Shown here piece after piece: positions 10,049-13,000 of a stretch of 64,000 nucleotides of DNA. Origin of the DNA: Escherichia coli (lineage in GTDB: Bacteria > Pseudomonadota > Gammaproteobacteria > Enterobacterales > Enterobacteriaceae); NCBI RefSeq assembly GCF_003334335.1, contig NZ_QOWQ01000015.1; one strand, given 5' to 3'. A program made the translations under genes and the position numbers. Below the pieces are notes generated by a model. That model saw only the letters and a list, made by a program, of their open reading frames with translations. It had not been told where the DNA came from and did not search any database. The first letter of the stretch is position 1, and each line of letters starts with the position of its first letter.

Positions 10049-13000
10049 TTACACCTTTTCCACATTCACAAGGAAGGACTTAAACTCCGGCGTCTGCGTG
10101 TTCGCATCACCAACGAATGGCGTTAAAGTATTGGCAATAAAGCCTTTTTTAGCTACGCCTTCATAGCCCCAGTGAATCGGAATACCGATGGTATCGATAT
10201 CTTTGCCGTTCGCTTTCAGCGTGCGAATACGTTTGGTCACCACCGCTTTGGCTTTGATATAGCCACGGTTGGAGGAGACTTTCACGGTATCGCCCTGGGC
10301 AATGCCAAGTTTATTCGCCAGCGACTCCCCGATTTCCACAAACTGCTCTGGCTGCAAAATCGCGTTCAACAGCGCGTGTTTGGTCCAGTAGTGGAAGTGC
10401 TCGGTCAGACGATAGGTGGTTCCGACATACGGGAACTTATCGGCTTTACCCAATGCTTCGGCGTCGTCTTTAAAGATACGTGCAGCCGGGTTCGAGATAA
10501 CGTTTGGATGCAGCGGGTTAGTTCCCAGCGGCGTTTCAAACGGCTCGTAGTGTTCCGGGAACGGACCTTCCGCCATCTTATCGAGGGCAAACAGACGCCC
10601 CATGCCTTCCTGCTGCATGATAAACGGCCCGACGCCGCTACCCGGAGGCGCTGCGCTGTAGTCCGGAATATCCCAGCCGGTCCACTTAGTGCCGTCCCAT
10701 TTCAGCAACTGACGCTTCGGATCCCACGGGTTACCCTGCGGATCTGCGGAGGCGCGGTTATACAGAATGCGGCGGTTAAGCGGCCATGCCCATGCCCAGC
10801 CCAGCGTGTTACCGAGGCCAGACGGATCGGCGTTATCACGGCGTGCCATCTGGTTGCCTTCCGGCGTCCAGCTACCGGCGAAAATCCAGCAGCCACAGGA
10901 GGTTGTACCGTCATCGCGCAATTGGGCGAACGAACTAAGTTGTTGGCCTTTCTTGACGATAACCGCACCGGTTGCCGGATCGGTAATATCGGCCAGCGCC
11001 TTACCGTTGCTCTCCATCGCCACTTCTTCTGAAGATGGCTCATGCGGAATGGCGTAGTTCCATGTCATGTTCAGCACCTGGTCCGGGTTCGCGCCACCCT
11101 GTTCGGCATACATCTTGCGCAAGCGCAGGAAGATACCGGAGAGGATCTCGCCGTCAGTCAGCGCAATCCCCGGGGCGTCCGCACCTTTCCAGTGCCACTG
11201 TAACCAGCGACCTGAGTTAACGATAGAACCGTTCTCTTCCGCGAAGCAGGTCGATGGCAGACGGAACACTTCGGTCTGGATCTTCGACGAGTCAACTTCG
11301 TTCAGCTCACCGTGGTTCTGCCAGAAGTTAGAGGTTTCAGTGTTCAGTGGGTCGATGGTGACGAGGAACTTCAGTTTCGACAGACAACCGATCACTTTGT
11401 TTTTGTTCGGGAATGAGGCAACAGGGTTAAAGCCCTGGCAGATATAGCCATTGACCTTGCCCTCTTTCATCATCTCGAAGTATTGCAGGACGTCGTAGCC
11501 TTTATCCCACTTCGGCAACCAGTCAAAGCCCCAGCTATTTTCCGCCGTCGCTTTATCACCAAAGAAGGCCTTCATCATAGAGACGAAGAATTTCGGGTAG
11601 TTGCCCCAGTAGTTTACCTGGCCTTCCAGCAGCGGTTTTGGCGTGTTGGCGGTAAGGTAGGTTTGCAGATCGGTCTGCTTCTCGCTTGGCAGCGTCATGT
11701 AACCTGGCAGGCTCTGCGACAGCAGCCCCAGGTCCGTCAGCCCCTGAATATTGGAGTGACCGCGCAGGGCGTTAACGCCGCCGCCTGCCATCCCCATATT
11801 GCCGAGCAGCAGCTGGATCATCGCCATCGTACGAATGTTTTGCGCACCAACGGAGTGTTGCGTCCAGCCGAGGGCATACAGGAACGAGGCAGTTTTATCG
11901 TGAGCACTGGTTTCTGCGATGTATTCGCAGACTTTCAGGAACGCGTCTTTTGGCGTACCACAGATGTTTTCAACCACATCTGGCGTGTAGCGGGAAACGT
12001 GCTGTTTCAGCAAGTTCCACACGCAGCGCGGATGTTGCAGCGTGGTATCGCGTTTGGCGAAGCCGTTTTCGTCCAGTTCATAAGTCCAGGAGGATTTATC
12101 GTACTTGCGTTTTTCCGCGTCGTAGCCGGTGAACAGGCCATCTTCAAAGCCGTAATCCTCACGCACGATCAGGCTGGCGTTGGTATAGGCTTCGGTGTAT
12201 TCGCGGTTGAATTTTTCATTGTTCAGCAGGTACAGCAATACGCCTGACAGGAAAGCAATGTCAGTACCGGAACGAATAGGGGCATAGTAGTCAGCTACCG
12301 CCGCCGTACGCGTAAAGCGAGGATCGATCACAATCAGCTTCGCGCCGTTGTGAATTTTGGCTTCCATCGCCCAGCGGAACCCGACCGGGTGAGCTTCAGC
12401 GGCGTTACCGCCCATCACCACGACGAGGTTGGCGTTCTTGATGTCGACCCAGTGGTTGGTCATCGCACCGCGACCAAATGTTGGAGCAAGACTTGCTACC
12501 GTTGGTCCGTGTCAGACACGCGCCTGGTTGTCGACCGCGAGCATACCCAGCGCGCGGGAGAATTTTTGCGTTAAATAGCCGGTTTCGTTACTCGACGCGG
12601 AAGCACACAGCATCCCGGTGGAGAGCCAGCGGTTAACAGTCACGCCTTCGGCGTTTTGCGCAATGTAGTTAGCATCGCGGTCTTCTTTCATCAGTTTGGC
12701 GATGCGATCAAACGCCTCTTCCCAACTGATTTGCTGCCATTTATCAGAACCTGGCGCACGGTATTCCGGAAACTTCAGACGGCTTTCGGAGTGGATGAAA
12801 TCCACCAGGCCAGCGCCTTTCGGACAAAGTGCACCGCGGTTGACCGGGTGATCCGGATCGCCTTCGATATGGAAGATAGATGCTTTGGCGTTTTTTGCTC
12901 CGTCACCGAGGCTGTACATCAACAGCCCACAGCCTACGGAACAATAGGTGCAGGTATTACGGGTTTCGCGGGTGCGCAGCAGTTTATACTGCCGGGTTTC

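Follow-up and report, generated by a model that had tools for sequence, protein, structure and literature searches.

Escherichia coli has three internal selenocysteine (Sec) TGA codons, in fdhF, fdoG and fdnG (PMC11903333), and fdoG is one of its three classical selenoprotein genes. All three formate dehydrogenases (Fdh) of the organism contain Sec, and the activity of Fdh-N and Fdh-O is absent in a selC mutant (PMC3160892). Fdh-O has been described as constitutive and as aerobic too, and Fdh-N as nitrate-induced; the catalytic subunits FdnG and FdoG are 74% identical in amino-acid sequence, and deletion and complementation have established fdoG as a functional gene (PMC3160892). The experimentally dissected model of the recoding signal is the SECIS element of fdhF, which encodes cytoplasmic Fdh-H (Sec140). 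The minimal element based on fdhF comprises 17 nt, lies 11 nt from the UGA and contacts SelB through U17, G23 and U24 (PMC8659212, citing Liu et al. 1998). The E. coli structures PDB 1kqf and 1kqg are of Fdh-N (FdnG), the paralogue of FdoG and not FdoG itself. Curated annotation, Rfam and the literature already record the UGA and SECIS element of fdoG itself, and the feature described below is biologically nothing new.

The window (the whole stretch of DNA analysed, 64 kb) corresponds to NC_000913.3:4072724-4136723 of E. coli K-12. Its minus strand carries fdoG (13099..10049), coding for the alpha subunit of formate dehydrogenase-O (1016 aa including Sec196) and 100% identical to b3894 of K-12 (NC_000913.3). 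Translated in one frame, the 1017 codons from 13099 to 10049 contain two stops only, the TGA of codon 196 (12514..12512, minus strand), which is followed by CACGGACCAACGGTAGCAAGTCTTGCTCC..., and the terminal TAA (10051..10049, minus strand). The list of open reading frames (ORFs) divides the gene into two minus-strand pieces, 12512..13099 (195 aa) and 10049..12463 (804 aa counted from the first ATG); since the single-frame translation meets no other stops, both pieces share one frame. Across the TGA the protein reads ...VDNQARV*HGPTVASLAPTFGRGAMT... and is uninterrupted. The TGA is almost certainly the Sec196 codon of fdoG, recoded by means of a downstream SECIS element, and no observation speaks against this. 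The analysis draws on the reading frame, protein homology, the alignment of the UGA with Sec, the match to a covariance model, covariation and conservation.

The protein family runs through the stop codon. In TIGR01553, the NCBIfam profile of respiratory formate dehydrogenase alpha subunits with Sec, positions 1-194 are covered by the upstream piece (271 bits) and positions 196-1009 by the downstream one (1279 bits, by itself above the cut-off of 814 bits), which leaves exactly one profile position for the UGA. A search of the PDB with a 123-aa segment around Sec, in which Cys was placed at the UGA position, gave an ungapped alignment to residues 170-292 of 1kqf (E = 1.6e-67). In the alignment the UGA falls opposite X196 (SeCys) of FdnG (1kqf_A) and opposite the Sec (X) of 1h0h_A and 6sdr_A, both Desulfovibrio enzymes. 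The ARV*HGP motif of fdnG and of fdhF likewise carries a TGA at the equivalent place, and fdnG resembles fdoG further in having Sec at codon 196 in the context ARV-U-HGPTVASLAPTFGRGAMT. The active-site partners of Sec196 are assigned from the motifs UH (residue 196) and ALRGHS (residue 444) as His197 (12511..12509) and Arg446 (11764..11762), which together span 11762..12511 of the minus strand; in the solved structures of FdhF and FdnG these residues are catalytic. FdoG also has a twin-arginine (Tat) signal, SRRQFFK, at residues 4-10 and a CxxCxxxC...C [4Fe-4S] motif, whose Cys50, Cys53, Cys57 and Cys92 are presumably the cluster ligands, judging from what is known of the family.

The gene neighbourhood identifies the enzyme as Fdh-O (fdoGHI) rather than Fdh-N (fdnGHI). 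The remaining genes of the fdo operon span 7576..10036 on the minus strand and are fdoH (9134..10036; NCBIfam equivalog TIGR01582), fdoI (8502..9137), for which the FdoI-specific NF007924 is preferred (453 bits, the model of FdnI reaching 244 bits), and fdhE (7576..8505; NF002925). On the other flank fdhD, the gene for an accessory sulfurtransferase, is divergent (13293..14126, plus strand; TIGR00129, 340 bits). RefSeq agrees on all four neighbours; no sel genes, no tRNA-Sec and no tRNA genes of any kind were found within the 64-kb window. An earlier, sequence-only reading of this DNA had held that a TGA at 12512-12514 splits the fdoG ORF, that the two pieces are in one frame and that the flanking protein is continuous for a molybdopterin formate dehydrogenase. 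All of this is borne out, including the letters that it quoted downstream of the TGA. Its naming of the gene also stands, on the identity to b3894 and on the fdhD/fdoGHI/fdhE context, and the comparison with FdnG and FdhF that it had suggested puts the UGA where a Sec codon is expected.

The RNA around the UGA is a member of Rfam SECIS_3 (RF01989). The element of 59 nt (12517..12459, minus strand) corresponds to model positions 1-59 and scores 84.3 bits against a gathering threshold (GA) of 63 (E = 2e-19). Model positions 4-6 are the UGA, in frame and inside the coding sequence, and pairing starts at the next base with the lower stem. The 5' arm of this lower stem (12502..12511, minus strand), taken from the Rfam consensus structure, consists of the codons for His197-Gly-Pro-Thr; the 3' arm (12467..12477, minus strand), found by both Rfam and ViennaRNA, consists of those for Phe-Gly-Arg-Gly. 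A spacer of 11 nt, CACGGACCAAC, is followed by GG, a bulged U, AGCAA, the loop GUC, UUGCU and CC. This upper stem-loop, GGUAGCAAGUCUUGCUCC (12483..12500, minus strand), starts 11 nt after the UGA, is the minimal SelB-binding hairpin according to the literature, and is drawn alike by ViennaRNA and by the Rfam structure. Numbering from the U of the UGA as 1 makes the bulged U (12498, minus strand) U17 and the apical G-U-C (12492..12490, minus strand) G23, U24 and C25. U17, G23 and U24 of fdoG thus match the positions described for the SelB contacts of fdhF, by the criteria of PMC8659212.

Of the two known elements, that of E. coli fdnG (RF01989) is the same as that of fdoG base for base over the 59 nt and likewise scores 84.3 bits. 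The element of fdhF belongs to a sister family, SECIS_2 (RF01988), and not to SECIS_3; cross-scores are below threshold, with 28.1 bits for fdoG on SECIS_2 and 35.8 bits for fdhF on SECIS_3. The fdhF element shares with fdoG the UGA, the 11-nt spacer, GG, the bulged U, a stem of 4-5 bp and the G-U-C apical loop, and the 5' parts of the two (UGACACGG.CCA.CGGU.GCA.GUCU) are near-identical. Directly above the bulge fdoG has an A-U pair and fdhF a U-A pair, a compensatory change that can be read off the sequences. The apical region of fdoG is one base longer and can be drawn with 5 bp under a loop of 3 nt or with 4 bp under a loop of 5 nt, whereas fdhF has a 4-bp stem and the loop GGUC; the 3' lower arms also differ in sequence. 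The resemblance to the fdhF and fdnG elements proposed in the sequence-only reading is therefore exact for fdnG and one of sister families for fdhF. The span that it gave, 12465-12514, is the right site but slightly short, as the Rfam match takes in 3 nt before the UGA and another 6 nt on the 3' side.

The likely course of decoding follows the literature, which is the source for the binding of SelB, for the delivery of the tRNA and for the part that Sec plays in catalysis. With the ribosome at the UGA, the downstream hairpin would recruit SelB carrying GTP and Sec-tRNA(Sec); the part bound by SelB would be the upper stem-loop 11 nt after the UGA, offering the bulged U17 and the loop bases G23 and U24. 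SelB would then compete with release factor 2 for the A site and deliver Sec-tRNA(Sec) there, giving the in-frame protein of 1016 aa. In the enzyme, which is of the molybdenum bis-MGD type, Sec196 is expected to be a ligand of the active-site molybdenum, beside His197 and Arg446.

The identity of fdoG and fdnG is wider than the SECIS element. Overall DNA identity between the two genes is 75%, yet they share a perfectly identical block of 71 nt (12447..12517, minus strand), their longest identity run (the next longest has 36 nt), which on the 3' side reaches about 20 nt past the SECIS stem. None of 20 synonymous sites in the block differs between the paralogues, vs a background of 41.6% (P about 2e-5). 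A single unbroken identical block in genes of 75% identity has the look of a short conversion tract, and its run of about 20 nt beyond the stem would fit such an origin too, so that the 71-nt identity might reflect recent gene conversion and not selection at the RNA level. We consider this unlikely. The exact same 59-mer occurs in 21 loci of other genera, in many cases with both paralogues of a genome carrying it (the genera include Enterobacter, Citrobacter, Klebsiella, Yersinia, Photorhabdus and Providencia), and it is improbable that each lineage underwent a recent conversion of its own. Loci were also picked on the similarity of their flanks only, as a set chosen on similarity of the core would bias a footprint of synonymous sites; in 22 distinct sequences chosen in this way a block of 69 nt is identical, while the flanks keep the codon of the window at only 45-58% of the codons for the same amino acid. 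Gene conversion bears on the identity of the block only and leaves the identity of the SECIS element untouched.

The same block could be read as an RNA-level constraint wider than the canonical SECIS element, covering 69-71 nt (the 3 nt that precede the UGA and about 66 nt beyond it) in which no synonymous site varies, in both paralogues and across Enterobacterales. If true, the extension might position or refold the SECIS element, pause the ribosome or protect against release factor 2. We regard such a constraint as quite improbable; it concerns only about five degenerate codons, most of which are already the preferred ones, and gene conversion between fdoG and fdnG is another conceivable source of the identity. 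An outer helix of 4 bp proposed by RNAalifold, pairing CCAG at -12..-9 with CUGG at +63..+66 and so enclosing the element, was rejected as too short and too invariant, only one of its pairs being variable.

Covariation across species supports the upper helix of the SECIS element. The set comprised 84 distinct sequences out of 120 genome stretches and was gathered by a pattern in which the first two positions of each codon for UHGP, V and FGRGAM are set; invariance at those columns therefore holds by construction. In these 84 sequences the upper helix is 96.1% paired, and three of its seven pairs change on both sides: pair 21-33 (GC 59, CG 11, AU 9), pair 24-30 (CG 41, AU 38, GC 2) and pair 22-32 (GC 64, UG 18). 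The covariation score is 0.231 vs 0.111 in shuffles and at most 0.098 with slid partners, and double-sided changes fill 78 cells vs 30.8 in shuffles; neither value was reached by any of 500 shuffles, a control that is not a probability because the sequences are phylogenetically related. Among positions left free by the search pattern, G18 (third position of Thr) and U27 (third position of Ser) never vary, and conservation of G26 is at least 90%.

These data weigh on the idea that the UGA is simply read through without Sec, for instance by near-cognate tRNA-Trp at a leaky UGA-C, the conservation downstream being a matter of protein constraint only. Termination is weak at a UGA with C as the next base, the free energy of the hairpin is unremarkable (below) and the bases of the lower stem are mostly constrained by the protein. 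Pairs 21-33 and 24-30, however, join synonymous third-codon positions, and protein constraint cannot explain their covariation; nor does it account for the invariance of the synonymous G18 and U27 or for the suppressed synonymous divergence between fdoG and fdnG. Together with the SECIS_3 score above threshold and the loss of Fdh-N/O activity in the selC mutant (PMC3160892), this makes read-through of that kind scarcely credible, and SECIS-directed insertion of Sec is the reading that we retain.

Folding energy is uninformative here. The minimum free energy (MFE) of the hairpin is -14.6 kcal/mol over 55 nt (z = -0.21) and -11.9 kcal/mol over 45 nt (z = -1.18), and the 18-nt upper stem has z = -1.38; at none of the three lengths is the hairpin significantly more stable than shuffled sequence. 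The validated SECIS element of fdhF is likewise unremarkable (z = -1.30). Free energy does not discriminate in this case and is not evidence against the SECIS element, the support for which comes from the covariance model and covariation. The folding check suggested by the sequence-only reading accordingly did find a stem-loop with the apical loop, but one with an MFE no better than that of shuffles. This makes fdoG a clean positive control, in which the covariance model and synonymous-site covariation identify the element and the free-energy z-score does not.

The lower stem is less well defined than the upper helix, and among the 84 distinct cross-species sequences it shows no double-sided changes. 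In E. coli the pairs of the Rfam register include A.C and A.G mismatches; the register favoured by ViennaRNA is displaced by one base and bulges a G. The shifted register was rejected as the better one, since across species it is 79.9% paired vs 80.0% for the Rfam register. Pair 12-45 suits E. coli-like sequences (AU 17, UA 6) and pair 12-44 suits GC-rich lineages; the register is ambiguous and probably lineage-specific. The ':' marks of Infernal were rejected as a guide to compensatory pairs: of the five pairs so marked, two are the A.C and A.G mismatches and one is G.U, and true compensation in E. coli relative to the SECIS_3 consensus is confined to pairs 21-33 and 24-30.

The TGA, the hairpin and the reading frame are kept in all 5426 complete E. 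coli genomes (5426/5426), in each of which the 66-nt element is present at no less than 95% identity, and homologues with the TGA and its context occur also in Proteobacteria, Acidobacteriota, Actinomycetota and other phyla. That the TGA is a nonsense mutation, leaving fdoG a pseudogene or two separately translated genes, is next to impossible: a mechanical ORF call does yield two ORFs and an in-frame ATG lies 17 codons downstream of the TGA, at codon 213, but this ATG belongs to the conserved FGRGAMT motif and is not preceded by anything like a Shine-Dalgarno sequence, the disruption is conserved with its 66-nt context in every one of those genomes and in homologues of several phyla, the frame is kept, the stop coincides with the Sec position of solved structures, the family profile and alignment are unbroken across it, and fdoG is functional by deletion and complementation (PMC3160892). 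The sequence-only reading had likewise denied that the split marks a pseudogene, and an ORF split at an in-frame TGA in a molybdopterin formate dehydrogenase is to be read as Sec recoding. It had also feared that automated annotation would call the gene frameshifted or truncated. No such miscall is present in RefSeq, where the PGAP and the curated records each give fdoG as a single unbroken coding sequence of 3051 nt. The sole flaw seen in the annotation is the PGAP label of fdoG, 'fdnG', a naming artefact.

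The in-frame TGA of fdoG is the already known Sec196 codon of this E. coli gene, followed by its SECIS; the literature counts three genes in E. coli that carry an internal selenocysteine TGA, namely fdhF, fdoG and fdnG (PMC11903333; PMC3160892). The minus strand reads GCG CGT GTC TGA CAC GGA CCA ACG GTA GCA AGT CTT GCT CCA ACA TTT GGT CGC GGT GCG ATG ACC around the codon, which lies at 12514..12512 (-) and is codon 196 in single-frame translation. The mechanical ORF list separates an upstream ORF of 195 aa (12512..13099, -) from a downstream ORF of 804 aa (10049..12463, -). Read in one frame, 13099..10049 comprises 1017 codons with two stops only, the TGA and the terminal TAA. 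Sequence and translation therefore agree with the sequence-only reading, in which the TGA splits an ORF whose pieces share a frame; the RNA it quoted, CACGGACCAACGGUAGCAAGUCUUGCUCC, matches the window exactly, and both its observation and its interpretation as selenocysteine recoding are supported.

E. coli K-12 and many other strains carry the 3051-nt fdoG stretch with 100% identity, and it was found in 5426/5426 complete E. coli genomes. The counterpart of the window is NC_000913.3:4072724-4136723, where the curated entry holds one CDS [fdoG, b3894, NP_418330.1, formate dehydrogenase O subunit alpha]. The neighbours are fdoH (TIGR01582 and RefSeq annotation), fdoI (NF007924, 453 bits versus 244 bits for the FdnI model), fdhE and the divergently transcribed fdhD (both by NCBIfam match and RefSeq annotation); they place the gene in the fdo and not the fdn locus. 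PGAP-annotated RefSeq E. coli records name 10049-13099 (-) ‘fdnG / formate dehydrogenase-N subunit alpha’ in every listed record, and there its neighbours carry the names fdoH, fdoI and fdhE; the label looks like a naming artefact that TIGR01553, an equivalog model, produces systematically. The suspected miscall as a frameshifted or truncated gene is absent from the RefSeq records examined, each of which has one CDS.

The RNA downstream of the UGA is a SECIS. Rfam SECIS_3 (RF01989) matches over the full model at 12517..12459 (-) with 84.3 bits (E = 2e-19; gathering score 63), the best-scoring Rfam match in the entire 64-kb window. The fdnG element is the same base for base and scores equally (84.3 bits), whereas that of fdhF falls in SECIS_2, a sister family (87.1 bits), and fdoG and fdhF score 28-36 bits on each other's family, below threshold. 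In the 3′ direction the UGA is followed by an 11-nt spacer, CACGGACCAAC, then by GG, one bulged U, a stem (AGCAA / UUGCU) that holds a G-U-C loop, and CC. With the U of UGA as position 1, the bulge falls at U17 and the loop presents G23 and U24. For the minimal SECIS of fdhF, which is 17 nt long and 11 nt away from its UGA, the same positions are described as the SelB contacts (PMC8659212).

The DNA of fdoG and fdnG is 75% identical, yet a perfectly identical 71-nt run spans 12517..12447 (-), with its first base 3 nt 5′ of the UGA; no other run exceeds 36 nt. In this block 0/20 degenerate codons for the same amino acid differ, versus a 41.6% background (P ~2e-5). Gene conversion between the paralogues could contribute to this identity, but it does not account for identity across genera. 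The E. coli 59-mer is exactly matched at at least 21 loci of other genera and, in a second set of Enterobacterales loci, for which only the similarity of the flanks decided the choice, 22 distinct sequences share an identical 69-nt block; in this set the window's codon is kept at 45-58% of same-amino-acid codons in the flanks versus 74-86% in the block. The frozen block reaches ~20 nt past the 3′ end of the SECIS stem, synonymous sites included, and this extension may reflect a wider constraint on the RNA, a preference for certain codons or gene conversion. RNAalifold predicts a weak 4-bp outer helix pairing CCAG (-12..-9) with CUGG (+63..+66), in which only one pair varies.

Folding predicts the expected hairpin, but its stability is not discriminating (z = -0.21 to -1.38), the validated fdhF element being no better at z = -1.30. 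Because free energy was uninformative, homologues were collected for covariation from a single genome of each species; the search pattern fixed only codon positions 1 and 2 of U-H-G-P, V and F-G-R-G-A-M (columns invariant by construction) and left all third positions and the six upper-stem codons free. At least 120 stretches gave 84 distinct 59-mers among the matches listed, aligned without gaps, and covariation was measured on the Rfam structure. Among these 84 sequences 96.1% of upper-helix cells are paired; pair 21-33 (model positions) is GC in 59, CG in 11 and AU in 9, pair 24-30 CG in 41, AU in 38 and GC in 2, and pair 22-32 GC in 64 and UG in 18. The covariation score is 0.231 versus 0.111 for shuffles and falls to ≤0.098 with partners slid 1-3 columns; 0/500 shuffles reach the observed value, a count that is not a probability as the sequences are related. 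Pair 21-33 links the third-codon positions of Val and Ala, and 24-30 those of Ala and Leu, so their covariation cannot stem from protein constraint. G18 (Thr/Ser third position) and U27 (Ser/Gly third position), though left free by the pattern, are invariant in 84/84 of the listed sequences. Such covariation at synonymous sites, together with the selC dependence of Fdh-N/O activity (PMC3160892), excludes Sec-independent read-through of the UGA as the main mechanism. No tRNA or tmRNA gene was found in the 64-kb window, hence tRNA-Sec (selC) is encoded elsewhere, unlinked to the recoding site, unlike in some Alphaproteobacteria, where fdoGHI-selABCD clusters are reported (PMC8124441).

Among the same 84 listed sequences the lower helix is ~80% paired and has no double-sided change. 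In the Rfam SECIS_3 register (12467-12511, -) A8.C48 and A12.G44 are mismatched in E. coli; the register that ViennaRNA favours is displaced by one base and bulges a G. Across the 84 sequences neither register outscores the other; A12-U45 suits enterics and C12-G44 GC-rich lineages, and the registers seem lineage-specific. According to a review, the sole role of the SECIS lower region is efficiency modulation (PMC8659212).

The UGA falls on the active-site selenocysteine. When Cys stands in for Sec, the 123 aa surrounding the stop give a gap-free alignment with FdnG residues 170-292 (PDB 1kqf; E = 1.6e-67), continuous across the codon, which corresponds to selenocysteine X196; at this column the enzymes of Desulfovibrio gigas (1h0h) and D. 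vulgaris (6sdr) likewise have X. The ARV*HGP motif also contains the TGA in the paralogues fdnG (codon 196) and fdhF (codon 140). The fdoG product has His197, Arg446 (within ALRGHS), Cys50/53/57/92 and the twin-arginine motif SRRQFFK. As had been read from the flanking protein, the formate dehydrogenase profile TIGR01553 (NCBIfam) spans both pieces, at positions 1-194 and 196-1009, leaving exactly one position for the UGA. This continuity, the universal conservation of the TGA locus, the lack of a plausible restart site downstream and published genetics (PMC3160892) rule out that fdoG is a pseudogene or split in two.

A sub-threshold match to FdoG1_thermometer (RF02778; 36.4 bits versus GA 50, E = 3e-06) at 13070-13306 (-) spans the fdoG 5′ UTR and the fdhD-fdoG intergenic region. 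REP-type repeats match naRNA4 (RF02564) above threshold at 21596-21666 (+), 21688-21758 (+) and 30603-30680 (-), and below threshold 3′ of fdhE at 7291-7430 (both strands). ES036 (CssrF) matches lie at 35685-35726 (-) and 55079-55120 (+). The ClpQY (hslVU) promoter element at 49378-49435 (-) (63.6 bits) and the L31 ribosomal-protein leader 5′ of rpmE at 54047-54099 (+) (60.1 bits) are expected at this E. coli K-12 region.
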